Source of the DNA: a virus
Lineage: Duplodnaviria > Caudoviricetes
Length of the DNA: 64,000 bases
Virus record (IMG/VR): IMGVR_UViG_3300047160_036126
Span: 13,575-77,574 of that record
Reading direction: 5' to 3' (one strand)
The notes under the pieces are model-generated. The model made no database searches. It was not told where the DNA came from and worked only from the letters and a program-made list of their open reading frames with translations. Both the position numbers and the translations under genes were made by a program. The stretch's first letter is position 1. Each line of letters starts with the position of its first letter. Below are positions 4,790 through 63,370 of this stretch, one piece after another.

Positions 4790-5152
4790 TTATGCCGGCT
4801 CCGGCTTACGATCTAGCATCTGAATGCTGCCATTGAATGGCCGCAGGACGATTTCGGTAGCGTTGTGCTTCACCCCATCCTTTTCGTATTGCCGATGCTC
4901 AAGGGCTCCGCGCAGGACAACGCGCGAACCTTTCTTGAGATGAGGGACGACGTGTTCAATCAGCGCGGCATTCCACAAGACAACCGGATGAAACTGCGAC
5001 CGAGTTTGTGTGGTACCAGCGTCGTTTTTCCATGTATCGGTTGTTGCGACCGAGAAGTTTGCGACTTGCTGGCCGCCTTGTAGCGAACGGACTTCGGGAT
5101 CGCGGGTGAGACGACCGAGTAAGGTGACTTCGTTAAGTGTTGCTTCAGGCAT
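4790..5152 (-). CDS. ssb: Single-stranded DNA-binding protein (OB fold only)
   Basis: LNEVTLLGRLTRDPEVR...FSVATTDTWK...KKGSRVVLRGALEHRQYE. Confidence 0.92.
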   Translation of the reverse strand: MPEATLNEVTLLGRLTRDPEVRSLQGGQQVANFSVATTDTWKNDAGTTQTRSQFHPVVLWNAALIEHVVPHLKKGSRVVLRGALEHRQYEKDGVKHNATEIVLRPFNGSIQMLDRKPEPA

Positions 5153-5232
5153 GGCACTTTCTCCCGTTGGTTTGTGGTTTAATGCACTGCACTTCGATCG
5201 GTTACGCCATTTCCTTTAAGGACGAAAGTTAA

Positions 5233-5667
5233 TCAATTATATCCTTCAAGGATCGCATTGATCTGGTCGGTTAATTCGTCTCGGTTGACGGTTGGCAGGA
5301 TGCGAGTAGTGATGATGTCGAGAACCCGATTGTAGAATTCTTCAAAAGATGTTTGCGACATGGCCGAGAAGCTAATCGATTTTGGCATGATGAATGGCAT
5401 GCCGTCTATCGTTGTTTTGGTTTCGAAGTATCCAGTCGCTACTTTAAGCGCGGATAACAAATCATAGGTGGTTGCATATTGCTGCTGGTGAGGGAACACT
5501 GCTTGCAGTAAAGCCCAGAGCTTACGATGATGCGCTGGATTGCGTGCTCTCCGCAGAGTCGCGGTTACAATCTCCCTATCATTGATGCTTTCGAGTCCTT
5601 CAAGACTGACGGGATCGGCCGCGGCGAGCTTCTGGCCTTCGCGCACAAGGAGCAGGTCGAGACTCAT
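5233..5667 (-). CDS. DUF1367/NinB-like recombination accessory protein
   Basis: RARNPAHHRKLWALL...PKSISFSAMSQTSFEEFY. Confidence 0.7.
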   Translation of the reverse strand: MSLDLLLVREGQKLAAADPVSLEGLESINDREIVTATLRRARNPAHHRKLWALLQAVFPHQQQYATTYDLLSALKVATGYFETKTTIDGMPFIMPKSISFSAMSQTSFEEFYNRVLDIITTRILPTVNRDELTDQINAILEGYN

Positions 5668-8111: not shown

Positions 8112-8139
8112 AAGTTAACCAAGAAAGGTTATTTGTCAA
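8112..8139 (-). promoter_or_regulatory. Leftward sigma70-type promoter with a palindromic operator in the spacer
   Basis: Minus strand TTGACA(8139-8134)-N16-TAACTT; operator TAACCA-AGAA-AGGTTA at 8116-8131. Confidence 0.55.
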
Positions 8140-8209: not shown

Positions 8210-8225
8210 TAACCATTCCTGCTTA
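8210..8225. promoter_or_regulatory. Second copy of the operator, upstream of the rightward HTH gene
   Basis: TAACCA-TTCC-TGCTTA, one mismatch to TAACCA-N4-TGGTTA. Confidence 0.5.
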
Positions 8226-8236
8226 TAGATTAAGCT

Positions 8237-8518
8237 ATGAAGGACACTAAGTCTGCTACCCCCCTCGAAGCTGCAATCCGCAAGATAGGGATGAAGCCAT
8301 CGCGCTTGGCAAGATTGTTTGCAAAAAAGAAGAAAAGCAAGAGTTCGAATCCGGCGGCTCGCATACACGATTACTGCAAAGGTAACATATTCCCTGAATA
8401 TGATAACGCCGTGGTGCTGCATGGAATCGTAGTGGGCGCCGGCGGCCGTATTGAGTTGGAAGACATCATCGACCCTCCGCAGCGCAGGGAGAAAAAACGC
8501 AATGCTACTCCTCGCTGA
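8237..8518 (+). CDS. Cro/XRE-like HTH regulator
   Basis: PLEAAIRKIGMKPSRLARL...IHDYCKGNIFP; first gene of a divergent operon. Confidence 0.65.
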   Translation: MKDTKSATPLEAAIRKIGMKPSRLARLFAKKKKSKSSNPAARIHDYCKGNIFPEYDNAVVLHGIVVGAGGRIELEDIIDPPQRREKKRNATPR

Positions 8519-8789: not shown

Positions 8790-9026
8790 ATGCCCCGTGG
8801 CCTCAGCTATTCCGCTCGGCGCCGTCTGTACAAGGAACTATTCGCGCGCGACGGCAATCTGTGCTGGATCTGTGGTGAACCGATAAGCCGGAACAATCGA
8901 GGCAAAACCATGAGTCGCACTTTGGATCGCGTCATCCCCGGAAAACAGGGTGGAACCTATCGGCCGGACAATCTTCGACTCGCGCATAAGCTCTGCAATG
9001 AACTGCGGGGAGCATCGCCCGCATGA
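8790..9026 (+). CDS. Small HNH endonuclease-like protein
   Basis: CWICGE...TLDRVIP..QGG...DNLRLAHKLCN; catalytic DH appears as DR. Confidence 0.8.
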   Translation: MPRGLSYSARRRLYKELFARDGNLCWICGEPISRNNRGKTMSRTLDRVIPGKQGGTYRPDNLRLAHKLCNELRGASPA

Positions 9027-9232
9027 CACAGGACGGATTTCTCAAATCTCTCAGCGATAACAAGACCGCCGTAACCATTTATATTGTCAACGGTGTCAAA
9101 TTGATGGGCGTGATCGCGTGGCACGATCAATACACGATCGGCCTCTGCCGCGACGGCCGCACGCAGATGGTCTATAAACATGCAATCGCAACCGTGATGC
9201 CGAATGAACCGCCGCAAGTATCAGGACGCTGA
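9023..9232 (+). CDS. hfq: Hfq-like RNA chaperone (phage-encoded)
   Basis: QDGFL..., Sm1 VTIYIVNGVKLMGVI..HDQY, Sm2 QMVYKHAIATVMP. Confidence 0.92.
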   Translation: MTQDGFLKSLSDNKTAVTIYIVNGVKLMGVIAWHDQYTIGLCRDGRTQMVYKHAIATVMPNEPPQVSGR

Positions 9233-13357: not shown

Positions 13358-13579
13358 TTATTCTGCAAATTCCAAACAGTCGTAATGAAGCCGATCGTCC
13401 TGCTTCCTTCCAGGCCAGCGGACACGCACTATCTCGGATTTGCTCTGCGGTTGTCGATTGACTACTCCTATTTCCTCGCCCCAGAGCGATAACAATGGTC
13501 GTTGTTTGCGTCCTTGTGGCGACAGCCGAACCTTATCTCTGATCCTGAACGGGTTTTCGGTTTCTTGTTTGTCGGTCAC
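13358..13579 (-). CDS. Small hypothetical protein (SH3/KOW-like)
   Basis: GTG 13579 overlaps the upstream stop; FRIRDKVRL...GVV...VRVRW. Confidence 0.55.
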   Translation of the reverse strand: MTDKQETENPFRIRDKVRLSPQGRKQRPLLSLWGEEIGVVNRQPQSKSEIVRVRWPGRKQDDRLHYDCLEFAE

Positions 13580-13950
13580 GCCGCCTCCATCAATTCGCGC
13601 GCGCGGACTTTGCTCGACTCCGGCATCTCCCAGCATTCGCCCCAATGGGTTTTGATCTCGATGCCGAACGGCTTGAGTTTTTTGCGCATCTTGCAAATCC
13701 ATACGTCGAGGATCTTCTCACCCGGCGGCTCGTCGGCCTCGGTGCTGTACATTGCCGCAATGAAGGCTTCGACTCTTGGCGCCCGATTGTTAAGCAAAAC
13801 GTTGAACATTTCTGCTTCGCTGCGAGTGAGGTTGAAATAGGGCGGCGGCATATCCGCTCCCTTAAGAGCCTTCTTAAGCAGGCGGATCTCTTCACGCAGC
13901 GTCTCGTTCTCGACGTCAAGAACTTCTGCCCTCGCCTTCCAGTCGATCAT
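13576..13950 (-). CDS. Receiver-less CtrA-like OmpR winged-helix protein with an N-terminal coiled coil
   Basis: DEPPGEKILDVWICKMRKKL...IKTHWG closely matches CtrA DEPELKIIDVFICKLRKKL...IETVWG; no receiver domain. Confidence 0.82.
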   Translation of the reverse strand: MIDWKARAEVLDVENETLREEIRLLKKALKGADMPPPYFNLTRSEAEMFNVLLNNRAPRVEAFIAAMYSTEADEPPGEKILDVWICKMRKKLKPFGIEIKTHWGECWEMPESSKVRARELMEAA

Positions 13951-14774
13951 GCGGCCATCCTGTTACCGGCACGGACCCAGCCTTGGGCGACGGCTTTCCA
14001 CAATTGCATGCGGTGATCGACATCGGAATGGGCGGCGACTTGACGCCGCCATTGGTCGATCGATTTGCTGCGCACGACCGTGACGAGATCGGCGGCGGAA
14101 TGCGCCCAGCCGAATTTGGCGTCGAACAAGACGGCCGCACTGGCAAGGATTTCATGCACGACGACCGGCGCCCGCTTGGCAGATACCAGCACCTTTAAGG
14201 CCTTGGTCGCCTTTTCCTCACCCAGGCGCCCAACCAGGCGCACGATAGCGCCGGCGGCCATGGTATCTCCAACTTCCCATTCTGGCGCCTGAACCTTCGC
14301 AATGGTTACGCCGGCCGCCTGGGCAACCTTCCGGGTGAGAAGGGCCGCCTCATCGCCGGCGACGATTTTGGCATGGAAGATTTGAAGGGCGTTCATCGTG
14401 AGACGGTGGGTATTCTGCTCGATGAAGGCCCGCGCGCGCTGCTTCAATTCGGCAGCTTTCACCACCATCACCGGGATTTTGTCGATGTCGCCGCGGCTCG
14501 CGGCTGCAATAGCGGTGTGCTGTCCGTCTATCACGCATAGCTTGCCATCCGTACCCTCTGCACAGATCGGCGGCTTGATATGTAGCCAGTCAAAATTTTT
14601 GGCAATCTCGCGAATAAGCTTGATCGATCGCTTCGTGAGATCCCGCTGATATTCGCCTTCGATGAAAAGCTCTTTTGGGTCGATCCATTTGAAGGAAGGC
14701 TGTTCGGGGGAGACTGTTTCGAGCTTCAGGCTGGGAAGGGGGATCGGCTTAACGAGACGAAGCTTTGCTGACAT
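13947..14774 (-). CDS. ParB-like N-terminal domain protein (DUF6551-like)
   Basis: EYQRDL, CVIDGQHT. Confidence 0.7.
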   Translation of the reverse strand: MSAKLRLVKPIPLPSLKLETVSPEQPSFKWIDPKELFIEGEYQRDLTKRSIKLIREIAKNFDWLHIKPPICAEGTDGKLCVIDGQHTAIAAASRGDIDKIPVMVVKAAELKQRARAFIEQNTHRLTMNALQIFHAKIVAGDEAALLTRKVAQAAGVTIAKVQAPEWEVGDTMAAGAIVRLVGRLGEEKATKALKVLVSAKRAPVVVHEILASAAVLFDAKFGWAHSAADLVTVVRSKSIDQWRRQVAAHSDVDHRMQLWKAVAQGWVRAGNRMAA

Positions 14775-14794: not shown

Positions 14795-15016
14795 TTAGAG
14801 GGCTGTTCGGTCATGCCTGCACCGTTTGGGTTGTTTGTCGTCGGGTTGGAAAATCAACACGGAACCGTCAGACCGTTCCAGTCTAGCCTCCACGATAAGG
14901 CGGCCCGCCTGCTCGACGCAGGCATCGCAAATATAACAGGACGGTCCGGCGATAAAAAGAAACCGCTCGCTGGCGTAGGCGCCGCAGAATGAACAACTGA
15001 GATTCTTGTTGCTCAT
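14795..15016 (-). CDS. Stand-alone ClpX C4-type zinc-binding domain
   Basis: LSCSFCG...FIAGPSCYICDACVE versus ClpX LYCSFCG...LIAGP.V.IC.ECVE; no ATPase domain. Confidence 0.85.
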   Translation of the reverse strand: MSNKNLSCSFCGAYASERFLFIAGPSCYICDACVEQAGRLIVEARLERSDGSVLIFQPDDKQPKRCRHDRTAL

Positions 15017-15471
15017 GCTGCCGGCCTCTGGTCAGAAAGTTGCGGGAGCATCTTAGAATTTATAGCGCGGTCGAGGACAGTCTCGCCGGTTGGCAAAAGC
15101 ATTTGACCAAGGAACGCGCCCTCGAAACTTAGGATGCCACTCTCGATTGCCATCACCTGGCCCTTGATCCAATCGCGCAGGATCGAGTAAACGGCCTTTC
15201 CGCCAATGTCCAAGGCACGCTGCTCCCATTCGGCGCGGGAAGCGCGACGGCGATGACTATAAGGATTTTCTTTCAACCAAGCGGCTGCGTAACCCTTTGC
15301 AGAAGCGCGGACGCAGATCGGAATATTGCGGAAGGTGAATTGGACGATAAGTTCGCCCTTCTCGAAATCCTGCATATGACCAAAATTCTGGACGCCAAAG
15401 CGCTGCAAAATCCTTTGCACCTCGTCCATTGCTTTCGCGCCGGTAGTGGCATCCTGATACGGCAGGCTCAT
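15013..15471 (-). CDS. Conserved hypothetical phage protein
   Basis: ILRDWIKGQVMAIESGILSFEGAFL; coupled ORF. Confidence 0.65.
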   Translation of the reverse strand: MSLPYQDATTGAKAMDEVQRILQRFGVQNFGHMQDFEKGELIVQFTFRNIPICVRASAKGYAAAWLKENPYSHRRRASRAEWEQRALDIGGKAVYSILRDWIKGQVMAIESGILSFEGAFLGQMLLPTGETVLDRAINSKMLPQLSDQRPAA

Positions 15472-15641
15472 GCGCGCCTCTCTGCTGTGCGCTGTGGCTT
15501 GGTTCGCGAATTGTATGAGATCGGAAGATCAAGAATCTTTCGCTCTACAATCACGGACATGCTTAAGCCTGTCTCCTTGCGGATATGCTTAAGCCTAGGC
15601 AGAACTTTCTCTGATAAAAAGAATGTGTGATTTTTCTTCAT
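15468..15641 (-). CDS. Ribbon-helix-helix (CopG/Arc-like) regulator, not in the ORF track
   Basis: Manual translation MKKNHTFFLSEKVLPRLKHIRKETGLSMSVIVERKIL... (57 aa); strand-helix-G-helix pattern; ATGA-coupled to the next gene. Confidence 0.65.
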   Translation of the reverse strand: MKKNHTFFLSEKVLPRLKHIRKETGLSMSVIVERKILDLPISYNSRTKPQRTAERRA

Positions 15642-16474: not shown

Positions 16475-17126
16475 GATTGATTTCTATCCGCAGGATTGGC
16501 TCGTCAAAACTGGGGGTCTCACGCCCGAACAGTGTGGTGTTTACATTCAGGTCGTTTCGCTGATTTATGCTTCGCGTGGTCCTGTTGAATTTGATCCCGC
16601 TCGTATATCGAGACTCGTCCAGGGCTGTACGGTGCGAAGGGCAAAACGAGTGTTAGATGAGTTAATTGCTTTAAAAAAGTTACATGTGTTTGAGGGATTT
16701 TTGAGCAATAATCGGTGCGAAATTGAGTTGAAAGTAAAGAAAAACCAATTGGAATCTAACCGAAAAGGTGGGGAAAATTCGGCAAAAAAGAGGTGGGGTG
16801 CTAATGAAAACAGAGGCATAGTTGTAAGTCACTTAGAAAGTGACTTAATAACCCCGTCCCCGTCCCCGTCCCCGTCCCCGTCCCCGAAAGAATACTTCTT
16901 TGAAGGTAAAATAATAAAGTTGACGGAAAAGGATTTTAATCAATGGCGATCGTCTTACCCGAACATTCGAGATTTGCGGGCTACGCTGCAGCGGCTTGAC
17001 GATGGTGCCGCGCGGAAATGGGGAAAGGGTTGGTGGCATCCGTGTTCTTCGACTTTGGCCAAAATTAACGCGGAAGAGAAAACAACAGCACGGGCGCCGC
17101 TGCACCCAGGGGCGATTACGATATGA
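16458..17126 (+). CDS. DUF1376/YdaU-family phage replication initiator
   Basis: FYPQDWL...LTPEQCGVY..., LSNNRCE; PSPSPSP linker; directly upstream of the helicase. Confidence 0.82.
   Translation: MDRLFRIDFYPQDWLVKTGGLTPEQCGVYIQVVSLIYASRGPVEFDPARISRLVQGCTVRRAKRVLDELIALKKLHVFEGFLSNNRCEIELKVKKNQLESNRKGGENSAKKRWGANENRGIVVSHLESDLITPSPSPSPSPSPKEYFFEGKIIKLTEKDFNQWRSSYPNIRDLRATLQRLDDGAARKWGKGWWHPCSSTLAKINAEEKTTARAPLHPGAITI
16825..16886. repeat. Inverted repeat plus (CCCCGT)5 tract inside the initiator gene; candidate lytic origin
   Basis: TAAGTCACTT-AGA-AAGTGACTTA (16825-16847); CCCCGT x5 (16852-16881). Confidence 0.5.
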
Positions 17127-18644: not shown

Positions 18645-19088
18645 TTGAGGCCGCTCGTGCCGAAAAAGAAAAAACCTCAGCCGCAAAAATCAGAAACGGG
18701 ATTGGAAGTCAGCATTTGCTTGGCACTGGCGGTAATTTTTATTGCCGCGTTGCTTGTGCGGGGATGGATGGAAATCAACACGGTTGCTCAGCTTCGCGAT
18801 GACAACAAGGTTCTGACCGCTGCGAACCATCAATTGTGGGACGAAGTGGATAAGCTGAAAGCGGAGAAGGTTGAAACGTTGCCGGCCGCGGGTCCACAGC
18901 ATATTTTTCTGCATGATGACCCGCCGAAAGAGCGTTCGGCTGATAGCCTAAATCTGGCTGAAGCCGTGCGCCACGGCGACCACAGGCGCGACAACATCGA
19001 AACGGATAAAGCCGCGGTTCACGCGGAGGAGGCACGCACGCCGGACGACGCCGGAGAGGAAGGCCAATGCCCGGTGTGCTCGAAATAA
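18645..19088 (+). CDS. Membrane-anchored coiled-coil hypothetical protein
   Basis: Single transmembrane segment then coiled coil; start uncertain. Confidence 0.5.
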   Translation: MRPLVPKKKKPQPQKSETGLEVSICLALAVIFIAALLVRGWMEINTVAQLRDDNKVLTAANHQLWDEVDKLKAEKVETLPAAGPQHIFLHDDPPKERSADSLNLAEAVRHGDHRRDNIETDKAAVHAEEARTPDDAGEEGQCPVCSK

Positions 19089-19267
19089 CCCGTTTCACTC
19101 CGCGCCGGAAGGCCGAGCTGGTTCATGCAATCGCGACCGGCGCGGTTAGCGATTACGAGGTGATGCAGCGGTATTCGATGTCTCCGCAGGAACTGCTCGA
19201 TCTCAAGCGTCTCGCACCGCAAGGGCGAAAGGCGCTGCGCGTGACGAAGCGAACGGTTTCCGCATGA
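19067..19267 (+). CDS. sciP: SciP-like (DUF1153) CtrA-inhibitor homolog
   Basis: RFTPRRKAELVHAIATGAVS..EV.QRYSMSPQEL...G..ALRVT matches the SciP pattern RW..RRKA.VV.AV..G..S..EA..RY.LS.EE....G..GLR.T. Confidence 0.8.
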   Translation: MPGVLEITRFTPRRKAELVHAIATGAVSDYEVMQRYSMSPQELLDLKRLAPQGRKALRVTKRTVSA

Positions 19268-19713
19268 TGAATTTAACCCCAGAGCAACTGCAAGAAATGT
19301 ACGTCGGCCAAAACAAGTCGATGAACGAGATCGCGCGGATAAGCGGCATGCCCAAGGGCACAATCGTGAGTCGGTTGCGCAGGTTGCGGCTGAGGGGGTT
19401 GATCGGGTTCAAAGCTCGCGGGCCGGCGAAAGTATTACACAGGCCGCGAAAACCTGTTGCCGATAAGCCGAAACCAGTGCCCGTAGTGGTACAGCCCAAA
19501 ATTGAGATGCCCATTCCAGTGGCGCCGGTGAGCCTCCTGAAGGTCAACGACAGGCTTTGCCGGTATCCGCTGGATTATAAGATCGACGGGTTTTCGGCAT
19601 GCTGTGGCGGGGAGGTGGTGGCGGGGACGCCCTATTGCGCGGATCATGCTGGTATTTGCTTTATTGTGAAGCCGCGGGTGCCGCCGCGAGGTCATCGGGC
19701 GATCGGGGAGTGA
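19264..19713 (+). CDS. gcrA: GcrA-like cell-cycle regulator
   Basis: N-terminal HTH (SMNEIAR...TIVSRLRRL); C-terminal SLL..NDRLCRYP...CG...GTPYCADH. Confidence 0.85.
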   Translation: MMNLTPEQLQEMYVGQNKSMNEIARISGMPKGTIVSRLRRLRLRGLIGFKARGPAKVLHRPRKPVADKPKPVPVVVQPKIEMPIPVAPVSLLKVNDRLCRYPLDYKIDGFSACCGGEVVAGTPYCADHAGICFIVKPRVPPRGHRAIGE

Positions 19714-19940
19714 GTTATACGCCGTCTTTCGAAATCTGGTATGATCGCAGTCTGTGTATTTCTTACCGATTTCGGATTTTCCGCGATGGCTTCTGTAGCA
19801 TAAGATTTGTAACGGCCAAGGAAGCGCGGTTTTTTCTCAGGTATTGGTACGGGGTCACGGGTGCTCCAGAATTCGGCTTTCCGTCTTAAAATATTGTTGC
19901 GCGCGCTGGACATTTGCAGCAATACTCGCAGTAATTAGGC

Positions 19941-20585
19941 ATGCGCGCGGCTACACCTTTGGTAAAACAAACGGAATTACCGGCTTTTCTGGTCGAGCGG
20001 CGTGCGGTCGCGCGCAAAAAGGAGCGCAAGATTTCGGCGCCGCGTCCTATCGGCGACGTCGGCACCGCGGAAATGAAACGACAGCAAAAGGTGACGCTGG
20101 AAGTGCGTGAACGGTCATCGACCGGGCATGCGACGATGATGGGCGCGCGTGTGGAATCGCAGTTTCCGATTGATCGGTATAAGGCGCGCAAAGAGCTCGA
20201 TCCGGCGAATGCCTGGAGGAATTTGATGCTGTGGCAGGCGGCTGAGCGGCTGCGCGAGGATTTCCAGGCTTCAGGCCTAGCGCCGAAATTGTGCGGAAGT
20301 TTCGAGCCGCGGGTGACGGGCGGACGTCAGACGTTCGAGGCGGATCATCAGGTCGACGCTCTCAGGCGCTACAAGAAAGCGATGGATGCTGTGGCGGTGA
20401 CGCTGCGGTCTGTGGTGTTCTATGTGTGCATCGCTGGTGAGGCTGCGAACGAGTGGGCGCGGCGGAACGGAGAAATACCGCAAGCGGGCCTGCCGATATT
20501 GCGCTTGGGCCTCGCGGAGCTTGCGCACCACTACGGTTATGCGAAAATTCCAGTGACAGACAAGACGTCGCTCGCTGGAGAATAA
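19941..20585 (+). CDS. Putative late-gene regulator (DUF6456-like, Q-position gene)
   Basis: QAAERLREDF..., VVFYVCI.G..., LRLGLAELAHHYG; last early gene before the packaging genes. Confidence 0.55.
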   Translation: MRAATPLVKQTELPAFLVERRAVARKKERKISAPRPIGDVGTAEMKRQQKVTLEVRERSSTGHATMMGARVESQFPIDRYKARKELDPANAWRNLMLWQAAERLREDFQASGLAPKLCGSFEPRVTGGRQTFEADHQVDALRRYKKAMDAVAVTLRSVVFYVCIAGEAANEWARRNGEIPQAGLPILRLGLAELAHHYGYAKIPVTDKTSLAGE

Positions 20586-54472: not shown

Positions 54473-56326
54473 CTAAAGAGAGTTACCCCCGTAACGCTCT
54501 CGGTCGCGGCTGCTGTATTGCTCTACCTCTCGGTCGCTTTGGGCGTTCTCGCGCAAGACGCGCTCCATTTTGGCGTCGGTGACTTCCTGTTCCTGGCCGC
54601 GCCCCGCCGAAGGTGCGGGCGTCTCGCGTCCCTGATGACGGGCCTGCAACTCGGTTTCCTGCTGGCGCTGGGATTGCTCGCGCTGTTGGGTCTGTTGCTG
54701 TTGGCGCTGTTCGGAGAACTGGTCGCGGTTCTGCTCGATGAAGTTGTCGCGCTGCTTTCTGAGTTCCGCCGCGTCGAAGGCGTAGTTGTCCGCGTCTGCG
54801 CGTGTACGCATCGTCTCTTCGGCATTGCGAGAGCCGGAGATGCAAAAGGATGTTTCCGAGCATTCGTATTCGGTGCGGGCCATATAGTCTTTTTCCTGAA
54901 TTTTGTAGCGGAATTCCATATCTTCCCGCTTGATCGGGTCTTGCTCGGCTTGAATTTCACGGTGCAGCCGGTATTGATCCTGCTTGAACATATGGTTTTC
55001 TATTTCGGCTATGCGGCCTTTGGAAACCATCCAATCGGTGATGTCATAGCGGCCTGACGATACAGCGAGGCTATAGCGAAGATTGGCGTCAACGATCTCG
55101 CCGCCCTGAACCTGTTGGTCGTATTGTTGCTGGTGTGAGGTTTTCTTGCGCTCAGCCTCTTCGGCTTCTGCGTAGGATTCCTTTTGCTGCTGCCTTGCCG
55201 CGTCCTCCGCCTTTCCGCGCCAGCGGTCGAAATCACGCTGGCTCTCGATCTGACGATATTCTTCAAGTTTGCGGTGGACATCGGCGGCTTCTTCCCAGCC
55301 TTCCTTGAGCTGTTTGCCACGGTTCTGGACGCGCTGCTTTTCCTCTTCCTCGTTCAAACGATTTTGGTGGTCCTCGGGATGAAGCGGGACATGCGCGCGA
55401 ATCTCATCCTCGCCAACTGGCCGCCAGCCTTGGTTTTGCTCGCGCTTGTGGTTGCTGTCGTCCACGATCTCTTGAACGGTCGGCATCTCTTCGGCTTTCT
55501 TCTGCTGAAGTTGCTGGATTTGGGAAGTCACTTTGTCGATAGCCACGGCGTACTTCTCGGCCTCGGCCTTGTCGGCCAGTTCGCGTTCTTCGTTACGCGC
55601 GCGGATTTCCCGGTTTTCATCGCCGGTCGGCGTGGGGACACCCTGTAGCTCGGCCTGGTTCTGCTTGTTGCCAAGATGCTTGGTCGGCTCGCGGTCAATG
55701 CCCTGTTCGGCGTAGCTGAGATGAGACCAGCGGTCGGGCAATCCGGCTTTTTCAAAACCTTCGTTGATCTTCTCGGCAATCGTTGCCCGCATCCATTCCG
55801 TTTCGGACGCCTGCTCGGCAAAGGCCGTGAGGTAGCGGATTTTCTTATCGGCAAAACCGTCGGGGCCTACCTCTTTCATATTGTTAACAAGGTGGCCGTG
55901 CCAGTTGTCCTTGTTGCCGTGTTGGGTCGGTTCGTGAAGGGAATAGGCGGCCATATATCCGTAGCGGTCGCAGAAGGCGTGCGCGATGCTTTTTACGATC
56001 TCGAAATTCTGTTCGGGTGTGAGTTTGCCGGATAGGGCGAAATTCCAGTGCTGGGCAAGGCGGGCATTGATGCGGCTGTCGTCCGTCTGTACCGCGTTCC
56101 AGGTTTCGGCAAGCCGGTCGAGGTCGAGGAATTGTTCGGGCGCTTCGGCGCGCGCTGCCATGCCGTAGTCCCAGACGTCGCCTTTGTGATTGCGGCGGCA
56201 AGTTTCGCCTGTCTCTTCATTGTACAGATTTTCGCCGGTAATATAGGCGACGGCTCCAACGGCGGATTTTCCTTTTCCGCGACTGACAGGTTTGACGTTG
56301 GCGTGATACTGGCTTGGCGTGGCCAT
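54473..56326 (-). CDS. mobA: MobA/MobL (MOBQ) relaxase
   Basis: YHANVKPVSRGKGKSAVGAVAYITG (catalytic Tyr), SLHEP...NWHGHLV, HLSYAEQGIDREPTKHLG. Confidence 0.92.
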   Translation of the reverse strand: MATPSQYHANVKPVSRGKGKSAVGAVAYITGENLYNEETGETCRRNHKGDVWDYGMAARAEAPEQFLDLDRLAETWNAVQTDDSRINARLAQHWNFALSGKLTPEQNFEIVKSIAHAFCDRYGYMAAYSLHEPTQHGNKDNWHGHLVNNMKEVGPDGFADKKIRYLTAFAEQASETEWMRATIAEKINEGFEKAGLPDRWSHLSYAEQGIDREPTKHLGNKQNQAELQGVPTPTGDENREIRARNEERELADKAEAEKYAVAIDKVTSQIQQLQQKKAEEMPTVQEIVDDSNHKREQNQGWRPVGEDEIRAHVPLHPEDHQNRLNEEEEKQRVQNRGKQLKEGWEEAADVHRKLEEYRQIESQRDFDRWRGKAEDAARQQQKESYAEAEEAERKKTSHQQQYDQQVQGGEIVDANLRYSLAVSSGRYDITDWMVSKGRIAEIENHMFKQDQYRLHREIQAEQDPIKREDMEFRYKIQEKDYMARTEYECSETSFCISGSRNAEETMRTRADADNYAFDAAELRKQRDNFIEQNRDQFSEQRQQQQTQQREQSQRQQETELQARHQGRETPAPSAGRGQEQEVTDAKMERVLRENAQSDREVEQYSSRDRERYGGNSL

Positions 56327-60147: not shown

Positions 60148-60354
60148 TTAAATCACCGCCGCCAGTTCCGCCTCATACCTCTCATTCCCTTCGCGGAAGC
60201 GGTCGGGATCGTGGGTTTTCAACATATCAAGTGCCTCGTCTGCGGTGTGGCGCATCCGAATGAGGGCGTCGAAGGCGTCCTCAATCGACAGTTGGCCGTC
60301 GCTCCATTCGTCAAGGATGGTTTCGAGTTCGAGCATGTACTGATCCTCGGTCAT
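60148..60354 (-). CDS. Hypothetical protein
   Basis: Coupled ORF. Confidence 0.55.
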   Translation of the reverse strand: MTEDQYMLELETILDEWSDGQLSIEDAFDALIRMRHTADEALDMLKTHDPDRFREGNERYEAELAAVI

Positions 60355-60659
60355 GCGGCCCCCAGTTGCTCGTAGATCGCCCGCGCCTGCTCGGCGGTGG
60401 TGACCCGGTTATCAGGATCGCAGAACGCCGCATTCTCGATGTGGAACCGCTCGGCGGCGTGCAATTGCGGGATGAGTCCGGCGAGTTGGTCATCCTCGCA
60501 ACCGCCGCTTACTTCCATGACGCGGCTCTTGCGAAACTCGGCCTTGCGTTCAAGGTGATAGCGGTTGGTGAAATATCCGCGCCAATTTTCGCCCATATCC
60601 ACGATTTGATAATGCCGGGTTTCAGCGACGATGTTTTCCATAGGACGGCTCCCTGTCAT
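60351..60659 (-). CDS. Hypothetical protein, first gene of the ardC operon
   Basis: Start ATG 60659 or 60641 (GGGAG RBS). Confidence 0.55.
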   Translation of the reverse strand: MTGSRPMENIVAETRHYQIVDMGENWRGYFTNRYHLERKAEFRKSRVMEVSGGCEDDQLAGLIPQLHAAERFHIENAAFCDPDNRVTTAEQARAIYEQLGAA

Positions 60660-60672
60660 TGAATAGTAAAAG

Positions 60673-60688
60673 TAACCAGTAATGGTTA
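60673..60688. promoter_or_regulatory. Operator TAACCA-N4-TGGTTA upstream of the ardC operon
   Basis: TAACCA-GTAA-TGGTTA, perfect palindrome. Confidence 0.6.
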
Positions 60689-61526: not shown

Positions 61527-63299
61527 CTAAGCCGGAGTGCGGAGCAGTGCCGGAAGCCAGCCGGTTGTTTTCAGCTTCCGCTCGGCGAGTGCCGTGAGTT
61601 CGGATTTCTTGAGGCCAACCGGGGCGGATGCCGGGTCTTTCGGGCATTGTTCTTTCAGCGCCGCCGTGATCTGCGCGGCGGATACCCGGCTGAAATAATT
61701 CTCCGCTGTCGGTTGCCACCATTCGGCCATGTCGAGCTTGAGCGCTTCGGCAAGGTCGGCGTGGTCGTCACTGTCCGGCTGCACGGTGGTCGTATCGACC
61801 GTGTGACCGGCGCAGAGGGCGAGAATGCCAAGCAGCGTCTTTTGATCCTGCTTTGTCAGCCAGCCCCACAGCTTGTCCACGTCCTTCGGCATGCCCTTGC
61901 GCACGGCTTTCGTCGTCGCCTCAAGCTGCTTGTGGGCCTTGGTGCTTTCGAAGCCTTCGGGGAGATAGGCAACGCTTGCGTTGATCTTGAGCGAGCCGGA
62001 AGTGCGGCCATAGATCACATCCACGGCGAGCGAATGCACCACGGCGACAAGCGCCACCTTCGGGTTTTCGGCGAGCATCGCCTGTAGCGCTGCCGTCCGG
62101 TGCGCCGTGAGATTTTGCACCAAGGCGGCGGATAGGTGGGCTTCGTCGTCCTTGTCGGTCTTTTTGCCCTTTGACTTTTTGGCCTCCGTTTTCCGCTCGG
62201 CCTTCATATCCTCCGGGCTGACAAGGCCGCGATGGAGTTCGGCCTTTCCATTGTGGGCGATTGTGATAACCACGCCCGATTTTGCCATGTCGTCGGCGGA
62301 AAAGCTCGCCTCGGTCTTGATTTCCGCCAGCCGTTCCTGGATATGGTCATAGCGGTCTTGTGCGTTCTCGTCCTCGCCGTCCAGTGCCTCTTGCTCCTCA
62401 ATGAGCTTATCGGCTTCCGTGCGCGCCTCTTTCGAAAGAGTTGGTGTGAGCTTGCGGAATTTCTGTTGCTCGCTGTATCCAAAGTCCGGTTTGATCTCTA
62501 CCCACTTCCAGCCCTTGGCGCGAAGATCGGCGGCGATTTGTTCAAGCTTGGCTTGCGCGAGTTCATTTAAAAGTACAGGATCGGCAAAATAACCTTGGTC
62601 GTCGGCATCAAAGAGGTCGCGCACGACTTCGCCGCCCGCTTCCTTATAGGCGTCCGTGCCAACGAATAGAGCGAGTTTGTTGCGCCGCGCGTCGATATAC
62701 TTTTCAAGCAGCGCGTCGCGGATCGTGTCGGCGTCTTCGTAATCCCGGCATGCCTTCCATACTTTTTCCTGTTGCTTGTGATCGTCGCTCACGGTGAATG
62801 CCATGAGCATTTCGAGCGTCATGTCACCGGCGCGGTACGCCTTTATGAGCTTCGGGCTGACGACCGCCAGCTTGAGGCGTTGTTCGACCACTTTGGGCGT
62901 CACGCCGAATTTCGCGGCGATGGTGTCGTTCCCCTGCCCATCGTCGGCCAGCCTCTTGAACGCCTCGAACTGGTCGGCGGGGTGCATGGCCGCGCGCATC
63001 TCGTTCTCGGCGAGGCTGATTTCGTGATCGTCTTGGCCGTTGAGTACGTGCGCGGGAATACCGGATTCCAAATCGGCGGGCAGGCGCTTCTCCTTGGCGA
63101 GAAGTTTGAGCGCTGCGAGACGCCGCATACCGGCGACGACTTCGAATTTGTCGTCCTGCTCGCGCACTTGAAGATTTTGAAGGAGGCCGAGTGCCGCGAT
63201 GTTGTCGGCCAGTTCCTTGATGCCTTCGTTGGTGTGAGTTTTGCGGACGTTCGCGGCGGATGGGATTAGTTTATCGAGAGCGATATTCTGTATTTGCAT
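61527..63299 (-). CDS. ParB/RepB/Spo0J-family protein of the plasmid leading-region type
   Basis: NVRKT, GLLQNLQV, EVVAGMRRLAAL, SLAENEMR..MHPADQF. Confidence 0.88.
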   Translation of the reverse strand: MQIQNIALDKLIPSAANVRKTHTNEGIKELADNIAALGLLQNLQVREQDDKFEVVAGMRRLAALKLLAKEKRLPADLESGIPAHVLNGQDDHEISLAENEMRAAMHPADQFEAFKRLADDGQGNDTIAAKFGVTPKVVEQRLKLAVVSPKLIKAYRAGDMTLEMLMAFTVSDDHKQQEKVWKACRDYEDADTIRDALLEKYIDARRNKLALFVGTDAYKEAGGEVVRDLFDADDQGYFADPVLLNELAQAKLEQIAADLRAKGWKWVEIKPDFGYSEQQKFRKLTPTLSKEARTEADKLIEEQEALDGEDENAQDRYDHIQERLAEIKTEASFSADDMAKSGVVITIAHNGKAELHRGLVSPEDMKAERKTEAKKSKGKKTDKDDEAHLSAALVQNLTAHRTAALQAMLAENPKVALVAVVHSLAVDVIYGRTSGSLKINASVAYLPEGFESTKAHKQLEATTKAVRKGMPKDVDKLWGWLTKQDQKTLLGILALCAGHTVDTTTVQPDSDDHADLAEALKLDMAEWWQPTAENYFSRVSAAQITAALKEQCPKDPASAPVGLKKSELTALAERKLKTTGWLPALLRTPA

Positions 63300-63310
63300 G
63301 GCGAAATCTC

Positions 63311-63370
63311 CCCTTTGGCAGATTGTGAGAAAATAACCATCTTTGGTTACTCCTTGTTATTGCCAAAGGG
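63311..63370. promoter_or_regulatory. Nested inverted repeats with a central operator upstream of the parB-like gene
   Basis: CCCTTTGGCA(63311-63320)/TGCCAAAGGG(63361-63370) flanking TAACCA-TCTT-TGGTTA (63334-63349). Confidence 0.6.

Follow-up and report, generated by a model that had tools for sequence, protein, structure and literature searches.

The DNA analysed here, a window of 64,000 nt, comprised bases 13575–77574 of the 77,574-bp IMG/VR provirus record IMGVR_UViG_3300047160_036126, and all positions below are those of the window unless a locus is named. At 13576–13950, its minus strand carried an ATG-started open reading frame (ORF) for a small, soluble-looking protein of 124 amino acids (aa). 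From its N-terminus, this protein has a leucine zipper of four heptads, a short linker with proline, a winged helix of the OmpR/PhoB type and a C-terminal helix, and it is called the zipper-wHTH protein below (wHTH, winged helix-turn-helix). The winged helix grouped with that of CtrA, the central regulator of the cell cycle, motility and gene transfer agents (GTAs) of Alphaproteobacteria, and the gene overlapped that of a ParB-like partner. The features of the gene are listed with the evidence for each; the structural model was predicted by AlphaFold2 (AF2), and its confidence is given as the predicted local distance difference test (pLDDT).

13576–13950, minus strand: zipper-wHTH gene (ORF; 48 close homologs and more than 3000 distant clusters; AF2 pLDDT 82.8)
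13864–13941, minus strand: leucine zipper, residues 4–29 (heptad conservation; g-e' covariation in 181 members; AF2 helix 4–30)
13831–13863, minus strand: linker, residues 30–40 (column statistics; no regular structure in the AF2 model)
13627–13830, minus strand: OmpR/PhoB-type winged helix of the CtrA clade, residues 41–108 (profiles, model and tree)
13666–13719, minus strand: recognition helix alpha3, residues 78–95, with the core KILDVWICKMRKKL at residues 79–92
13582–13620, minus strand: extra C-terminal helix, residues 111–123 (AF2 helix; conserved motif SK-x-RAREL)

Architecture and kinship of the zipper-wHTH protein

The Pfam family Trans_reg_C (PF00486) matched residues 40–104 with 21.7 bits, which was under its gathering score of 26.2, and the same domain was carried by 14 of the 48 close homologs. 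A weak match to bZIP_1 covered residues 6–28, and the PHROG match was phrog_31800, annotated as 'transcriptional regulator'. A profile built from the alignment of 41 zipper-wHTH homologs (profile A1) detected OmpR/PhoB DNA-binding domains in the PDB at an E-value of 7e-7 and, weakly, the leucine zipper of VBP at positions 3–33; the PDB search with the single sequence returned a chance kinase match and nothing more. The AF2 model began with a long helix (residues 4–30) and an unstructured linker, of which Pro36 was conserved in 82% of the family alignment. The winged helix followed, with helices at 43–54, 60–68 and 78–95 and wing strands at 100–102 and 106–108, and then the additional helix at 111–123. 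In Foldseek, the model superposed on the DNA-binding domains of ArlR, CssR, SaeR, PhoB and ToxR over 74 columns with a root-mean-square deviation of about 2 Å.

The four-strand beta-sheet platform that is N-terminal in OmpR-type domains was missing, with no strands before alpha1 in the model, and the alignment retained only the x-L-T motif of its last strand. No receiver domain (PF00072) was detected in the protein or in the six frames of the whole 77.6-kb record. The initial annotation had described a receiver-less CtrA-type DNA-binding head, and that description was borne out. The two peptides that it had singled out were located at residues 4–29 and 79–92.

The kinship of this head was examined with five CtrA genes that scored above the NCBIfam cut-off, taken from Hyphomicrobiales genomes carrying zipper-wHTH relatives, within a comparison set of 32 OmpR-family regulators (the five CtrAs and 27 others). 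With residues 37–124 as the phmmer query, the five CtrAs ranked first (21.6–23.4 bits, E about 1e-6), and all 27 non-CtrA paralogs stayed below 10 bits. The DNA-binding domain was 32–33% identical to that of CtrA and 15–29% identical to those of other OmpR-family regulators. In a quick IQ-TREE analysis, 41 family members and the five CtrAs fell on one side of a branch that separated them from the 27 other domains (Shimodaira–Hasegawa-like approximate likelihood ratio test, SH-aLRT, 94). The best NCBIfam match was CtrA itself (NF045991), with 25.6 bits against a cut-off of 350 bits and over profile positions 150–217 of 224 only. Because it had no receiver and scored far below the cut-off, the zipper-wHTH protein is not CtrA proper. 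Judged by these sequence comparisons, CtrA is the specific closest kin of its head among the OmpR-family paralogs.

A search in the other direction agreed with this. Profile A1 found a single match at E ≤ 1e-12 in each of 210 of 301 alphaproteobacterial genomes, and no other OmpR paralog in the 301 genomes reached that threshold. These matches spanned profile positions of about 38–118 in frames of about 240 aa, the span and size of a CtrA-like protein, and the one match that was checked (in genome G003) sat in a known CtrA locus. The tally takes in two unpublished genomes (G049 and G249), on which alone no claim rests.

The resemblance was closest at the DNA-reading elements. The recognition-helix core, compared with the CtrA sequence KIIDVFICKLRKKL read from the five CtrA genes, was identical at 11 of 14 positions, and the remaining three changes were conservative (I/L, F/W and L/M), so that the earlier description of this helix as nearly that of CtrA was accurate. 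All five CtrAs contained EPELKIIDVFICKLRKKL, where the zipper-wHTH protein has PPGEKILDVWICKMRKKL. Over 181 members of the family, variability was least (lowest entropy) in the columns of the recognition helix and the wing, and the majority residue was that of CtrA at 12 of the 14 core positions. The wing I-x-T-x-W-G-x-G-Y was common to both proteins, and the loop before the recognition helix, DEP-x-x-K, was also kept from CtrA. In the PDB, CtrA was represented by its receiver domain only (4qpj), with no CtrA-DNA structure.

In place of the receiver, residues 4–29 (WKARAEVLDVENETLREEIRLLKKAL) formed a heptad repeat in which W4 was set at position d, with L11, L18 and L25 at the following d positions and A8, N15, I22 and L29 at the a positions. 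The zipper statistics were taken from the same 181 members. Leucine occupied d positions 11, 18 and 25 in 85, 93 and 96%, and the a positions were Asn15 in 77%, V/I22 in 76% and L/I29 in 78%. The central Asn at position a is a classic mark of an in-register parallel coiled-coil dimer. Opposite charges far outnumbered same charges at each g-e' pair: 87 to 2 at positions 7–12, 148 to 2 at 14–19 and 127 to 3 at 21–26. At the last pair the charges were swapped between members, being R-E in 99 sequences and E-K/R in 28. Within a single helix, residues spaced by five make no contact, and this charge pattern therefore points to contacts between two parallel helices. The heptad conservation and the covariation upheld the N-terminal coiled coil noticed in the initial annotation. 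They also give good grounds for its proposal of a constitutive dimer, and we infer that the protein would pair with itself in parallel, independently of phosphorylation.

The zipper resembled those of the bZIP/GCN4 type in its four heptads, the Leu at d, the central Asn at a and the complementary g-e' charges. It differed from them in that no basic region continued from the zipper and DNA would be read by a separate, C-terminal winged helix. The likeness is regarded as an analogy and does not imply homology.

The ParB-like partner, the family and related systems

The partner gene, which the initial annotation had missed, is the strongest functional clue at this locus. It and its immediate surroundings comprised the following features.

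13947–14774, minus strand: 275-aa partner, a ParB/KorB-fold DUF6551 protein with an invariant DGQH motif (Pfam, PHROG, AF2 and Foldseek)
13947–13950, minus strand: ATGA overlap of the partner's stop and the zipper-wHTH start (read from the sequence)
14795–15641, minus strand: upstream genes of the same early operon, namely Arc-like (57 aa), phrog_17260 (152 aa) and ClpX-zinc-finger-only (73 aa)

An ATGA overlap of this kind usually means translational coupling. The partner matched Pfam DUF6551 with 41.9 bits and was ParB-like in PHROG. Its AF2 model (pLDDT 93.6) had ParB, Noc and KorB constructs as its best Foldseek matches (E 2e-5 to 1e-3), the KorB-KorA co-complex entry 8qa9 among them, and it aligned over 220–270 columns to ParB constructs, including their own helix-turn-helix region. 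The equivalent of Box II was an invariant D-G-Q-H followed by T, and the canonical Arg of the GxxR (P motif) was lacking. Phage DUF6551 proteins have been reported to bind CTP or ATP in vitro (bioRxiv 10.1101/2025.10.10.680097, preprint).

A ParB-like homolog (35–62% identical) lay directly upstream of the zipper-wHTH gene in at least 54 of 104 related loci, and no other neighbour of the gene in the window was conserved among these loci. The leftward early operon started near 15641 and ran through the Arc-like, phrog_17260, ClpX-zinc-finger, DUF6551 and zipper-wHTH genes in that order. It continued with several genes of unknown function and then with Erf, an exonuclease, NinB, SSB, an MT-A70 methyltransferase and an HNH endonuclease. 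The Arc-like, phrog_17260 and ClpX-zinc-finger genes were not conserved beside the pair in relatives. A tyrosine integrase gene was found just left of the window.

A word-indexed search returned 48 close homologs of the zipper-wHTH protein (119–140 aa), mostly metagenomic and often labelled 'CtrA' by the automatic annotation of JGI. An exhaustive profile search returned 9170 cluster representatives at E ≤ 1e-3, 3166 at 1e-10 and 87 at 1e-30, and almost all of the top 150 were end-to-end matches of 115–145 aa. Fused longer forms were not found at E ≤ 1e-8, which is weak evidence. Among the genome matches, 23 of 25 belonged to Alphaproteobacteria, 20 of these to Hyphomicrobiales, and only one to three genomes in a random sample of 301 alphaproteobacterial genomes held true family members. 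This sporadic distribution fits carriage by prophages.

A second receiver-less subfamily with a CtrA head, of about 114 aa, had an N-terminal C-P-x-C-G-Q motif in the place of the zipper. This CxxC-headed form kept remnants of the beta-strands, and in some members its recognition helix was identical to that of CtrA. At about 10 loci a ParB-like gene lay directly downstream, as in loci L110, L116, L117, L119–L121, L126 and L128 (at about 4900–5250). The ParB-like gene was thus upstream in the zipper form and downstream in the CxxC form, and the pairing survived the reversal of gene order.

Two tandem zipper-wHTH copies after one ParB-like gene were observed at loci L015, L020, L076, L079, L081 and L083, and also at L092, L093, L096, L100 and L105. 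Heterodimers between such paralogs are possible. Tandem two-copy proteins (e.g., P0142) were inspected as candidate single-chain dimers and set aside, the second zipper being lacking.

Compared with CtrA, the zipper-wHTH protein had nearly the same recognition helix, DEP-containing loop and wing, and it was the sister of CtrA in the domain tree. It differed in having no receiver, no Asp51 and no N-terminal sheet, in being about 32% identical over the domain, and in its added zipper and C-terminal helix, its carriage by phages and its coupling to a ParB-like gene.

Receiver-less CtrA homologs have been noted before in roseophages (Hynes et al., 2016, PMC5026251; Fogg, 2019, PMC6363796). An ORF of roseophage RDJLphi1, located between the gafA and rcc01866 homologs, resembled part of CtrA (Hynes et al., 2016, PMC5026251), and a BFVD entry from RDJLphi2 is named 'Transcriptional regulator CtrA'. 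These 'phage CtrA' proteins (RDJLphi1, phi2 and RDJL3) shared with the zipper-wHTH protein a phage-encoded, receiver-less CtrA-type domain with the same recognition helix, and they were homologous to it (34% over residues 12–118). However, they lay beside gafA and rcc01866 homologs, had no ParB-like neighbour within 6 kb and have not been described as zippers. The homologs in cultured phages, namely RDJL3, RcD-cluster phages of R. capsulatus and vB_PmaS-R3, were fusions of DUF6456 (GafA-type) and Trans_reg_C, and the DUF6456 fusion set the versions of RDJL3, RcSalem and vB_PmaS-R3 apart from the zipper form. In RDJL3 and vB_PmaS-R3 a sigma-r4-like helix-turn-helix was additionally fused to the C-terminus. 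The cultured Rhodobacterales phages thus join a GafA-type and a CtrA-type module in one protein. The fusions were located as follows.

L059, 5740–6579: RDJL3, DUF6456 and Trans_reg_C fusion
L060, 5731–6336: RcSalem gp58, DUF6456 and Trans_reg_C fusion
L061, 5656–6456: vB_PmaS-R3 gp25, DUF6456 and Trans_reg_C fusion

Other regulators of related fold are assembled differently. ToxR, CadC and the SARP/AfsR type carry a receiver-less OmpR/PhoB winged helix and rely for assembly on membrane/periplasmic or BTAD domains. None of them is known to use a leucine zipper or to be a member of the CtrA clade; ToxR was among the fold matches of the AF2 model. The KorA-KorB pair of plasmid RK2, in which KorA is a small, dimeric, operator-binding repressor and KorB a CTP-dependent clamp of the ParB family, offered a parallel for the operon, in that a small dimeric DNA binder (predicted here to be dimeric) shares one operon with a ParB-fold nucleotide-binding protein and KorB and KorB-KorA entries were among the structural matches of the partner. 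In contrast, KorA is a plain helix-turn-helix protein with neither a zipper nor an OmpR-type winged helix, and there was no sequence relationship.

No paper was found on the zipper form, its ParB coupling or any function of it. The general idea has published precedent and the family is real and widespread; the zipper-wHTH protein is a new architectural variant both of the receiver-less OmpR-type regulators and of the 'phage CtrA' already noted. A large phage family with a CtrA head and a zipper in place of the phospho-switch suggests that phages can read CtrA-type sites, or compete for them, off the host relay. The coupling also gives an unstudied branch of the ParB fold a candidate partner with KorA/KorB-like logic.

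DNA targets and possible functions

We have moderate confidence in the following mechanism. The GCN4-like parallel zipper (residues 4–29) would pair two copies without phosphorylation, and a 10-residue proline linker would join each zipper strand to a winged helix with the recognition helix, loop and wing of CtrA. The protein would be an early product of the leftward operon, in a temperate phage that bears an integrase gene and has an alphaproteobacterial host, and its translation would be coupled to that of a nucleotide-binding protein of the ParB/KorB fold. Such a constitutive dimer of CtrA-type heads would read TTAA-like half-sites whatever the state of the host CckA-ChpT phosphorelay. It would then act as an early regulator of the phage together with its ParB-like partner, as KorA does with the clamp KorB in RK2. 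That the recognition helix hardly varies between very divergent phages with N-termini of three architectures speaks for a fixed, host-like site; the constant ParB-like partner suggests that more than plain mimicry is involved. If the mechanism holds, it would also bear on the route by which GTA genes came under the control of CtrA, which Hynes et al. (2016) and Fogg (2019) had asked about.

Several observations weigh against this mechanism. The initial annotation had put forward TTAA-N7-TTAA as a target; the 64,000-nt window contained no perfect site of this kind, and its one-mismatch sites numbered 7 where 13.6 were expected. Over the 1.04 Mb that surrounded 105 relatives, a spacing of N7 (4 sites) was no commoner than one of N5 or N8, and there was neither a preference for TTAAC over other TTAAN nor a TTAACCAT bias. 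CtrA boxes on phage DNA were accordingly rejected as the target, with no enrichment in the window or near the relatives' genes. An unbiased search for 5-mer dyads in crudely defined intergenic regions returned GC-rich, codon-like patterns only. Inverted repeats would suit a symmetric zipper dimer best, whereas members of the OmpR family usually sit head to tail on direct repeats. Because TTAA reads the same on both strands, this core is compatible with either arrangement, unlike the extended CtrA half-site. In the alignment, T168 and T170 of CtrA were not kept in the zipper-wHTH protein, and these residues have been linked to the choice of promoter class (bioRxiv 10.1101/739516). The tree was a quick search over 86 columns with paralogs mostly from one genome, and the Fisher's test on the 21/26 charge swap (2e-25) was uncorrected for phylogeny, that is, shared ancestry was ignored.

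A second target named in the initial annotation, TAACCA-N4-TGGTTA, was a real element of this phage, with four sites (two of them perfect) in the AT-rich gaps of the window against 0.9 expected.

8116–8131: TAACCA-N4-TGGTTA site
8210–8225: TAACCA-N4-TGGTTA site
60673–60688: TAACCA-N4-TGGTTA site
63334–63349: TAACCA-N4-TGGTTA site

Two copies stood upstream of the minus-strand genes 60351–60659 and 61527–63299 (ParB_N, 590 aa), and the other two beside a 93-aa ORF at 8237–8518. The palindrome was missing from four related virus records, one of them a complete provirus with a zipper-wHTH protein of 73% identity; it therefore does not travel with the protein and was rejected as its operator. Most likely it serves another regulator as an operator. 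Searches of the window for repeated k-mers and for 6-mer palindromes yielded no further candidate site common to relatives, and local scans for repeats, promoters and terminators around the zipper-wHTH gene were uninformative.

One alternative places the action of the protein on the host chromosome. It is possible, though we hold it rather unlikely, that the constitutive dimer occupies host CtrA boxes as a surrogate or competitor of CtrA. It would switch on the CtrA regulon without CckA-ChpT, or block CtrA, and thereby reprogramme the cell cycle, motility, receptors or GTA genes to the advantage of the phage. A fixed host site would fit the near-invariant, CtrA-like recognition helix over divergent phages better than co-evolving operators would, and the lack of cognate sites on phage DNA, both in the window and around the 105 relatives, points the same way. 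The hosts are also consistent with it, as 23 of the 25 genome matches were Alphaproteobacteria and all cultured-phage matches have Rhodobacterales hosts; however, this restriction is equally expected from simple capture of the domain from the host. The phage additionally carries SciP-family, GcrA-like and ClpX-zinc-finger genes, but the GcrA-like gene was present in only 4 of 30 related phage records, and a conserved 'cell-cycle mimic set' was rejected for that reason. The CtrA of the host is known to regulate phages of Alphaproteobacteria (PMC9437464; PMC10589892). Mimicry alone, however, does not explain the constant ParB-like partner. A version in which the zipper-CtrA head and the NTP-binding (nucleoside triphosphate-binding) ParB-like partner act together on host CtrA boxes, overriding the cell-cycle and motility programme, is conceivable and in our estimate unlikely. 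If the surrogate or blocker reading were true, the family would amount to a widespread viral device for taking over a master regulator. In Caulobacter, CtrA controls the chromosomal origin; such control is not known to be general in Hyphomicrobiales.

Another explanation, which we consider doubtful, is that the protein is a purely phage-internal regulator whose CtrA-like head is an inherited scaffold that now reads an operator of the phage with no relation to CtrA boxes, such as one elsewhere in the genome at a late promoter. Many small phage regulators occupy an early-operon position such as this one, the PHROG family is annotated as a transcriptional regulator, CtrA boxes were absent nearby, and the F-to-W change at residue 84, a likely base contact, varied within the family. 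However, no repeated candidate operator common to the relatives was found, and the extreme conservation of the recognition helix, where other genes were 35–40% identical, is unlike that of immunity-type regulators. The probabilities that we attach to sites on host DNA and to phage sites unlike CtrA boxes overlap with that of the constitutive-dimer mechanism.

It is less probable again that the protein is a DNA-targeting adaptor and not a transcription factor, marking a site at which the DUF6551 NTPase would load, spread, silence, partition or process DNA. The pairing kept in both gene orders, the ATGA overlap, the KorB-KorA entry 8qa9 among the partner's structural matches and the NTP binding of DUF6551 proteins (bioRxiv 10.1101/2025.10.10.680097) are in line with such a role. 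On the other hand, the partner aligned with ParB constructs including their helix-turn-helix and may need no adaptor, the Rhodobacterales phage versions lacked a ParB-like gene within 6 kb, and the partner's Box II equivalent, DGQHT, had no canonical Arg.

The last candidate, a decayed and functionless fragment of a captured ctrA, could draw on the presence of only the C-terminal half of CtrA and on the sub-threshold Pfam score, but it was effectively refuted by family conservation: the reading frame was intact with a coupled start, the fold was predicted with confidence, and thousands of full-length homologs of 115–145 aa conserved the zipper, head and C-terminal helix.

Other genes of the provirus

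Within the early operon, the 73-aa protein encoded at 14795–15016 on the minus strand, two genes upstream of the zipper-wHTH gene, consisted of a ClpX C4 zinc finger only (45.4 bits). It could interfere with the binding of substrates or adaptors by ClpX. A 17-mer containing the palindrome GCTTAAGC occurred twice, at 15554–15570 and 15580–15596, 26 bp apart, within the predicted Arc-like ORF and close to the divergent early control region. Both copies of this 17-mer are candidate operators.

Three small regulator genes stood in a row on the plus strand at 19067–20585, after that of a DnaB helicase. They encoded a DUF1153/SciP-family protein (66 aa, 39.8 bits), a GcrA-like protein (149 aa, 33.3 bits, over the cut-off) and a DUF6456 protein of the GafA/GafY type (214 aa, 56.8 bits). 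A phage-encoded Hfq (69 aa, Pfam Hfq 85.5 bits) was found at 9023–9232 on the plus strand, next to HNH endonuclease genes; this part of the leftward arm forms an island of plus-strand genes.

The right end of the provirus contained a MobA/MobL relaxase gene (54473–56326, minus strand, 102.5 bits) and the gene for the 590-aa ParB_N protein (61527–63299, minus strand). It is possible that the record takes in a second element, one that can be mobilised, or that the phage has features of a plasmid. A hexanucleotide repeat at 16852–16880 on the plus strand, with five or six tandem copies of a 6-nt unit, encoded an SPSPSPSPSP linker within a DUF1376 replication-type protein.

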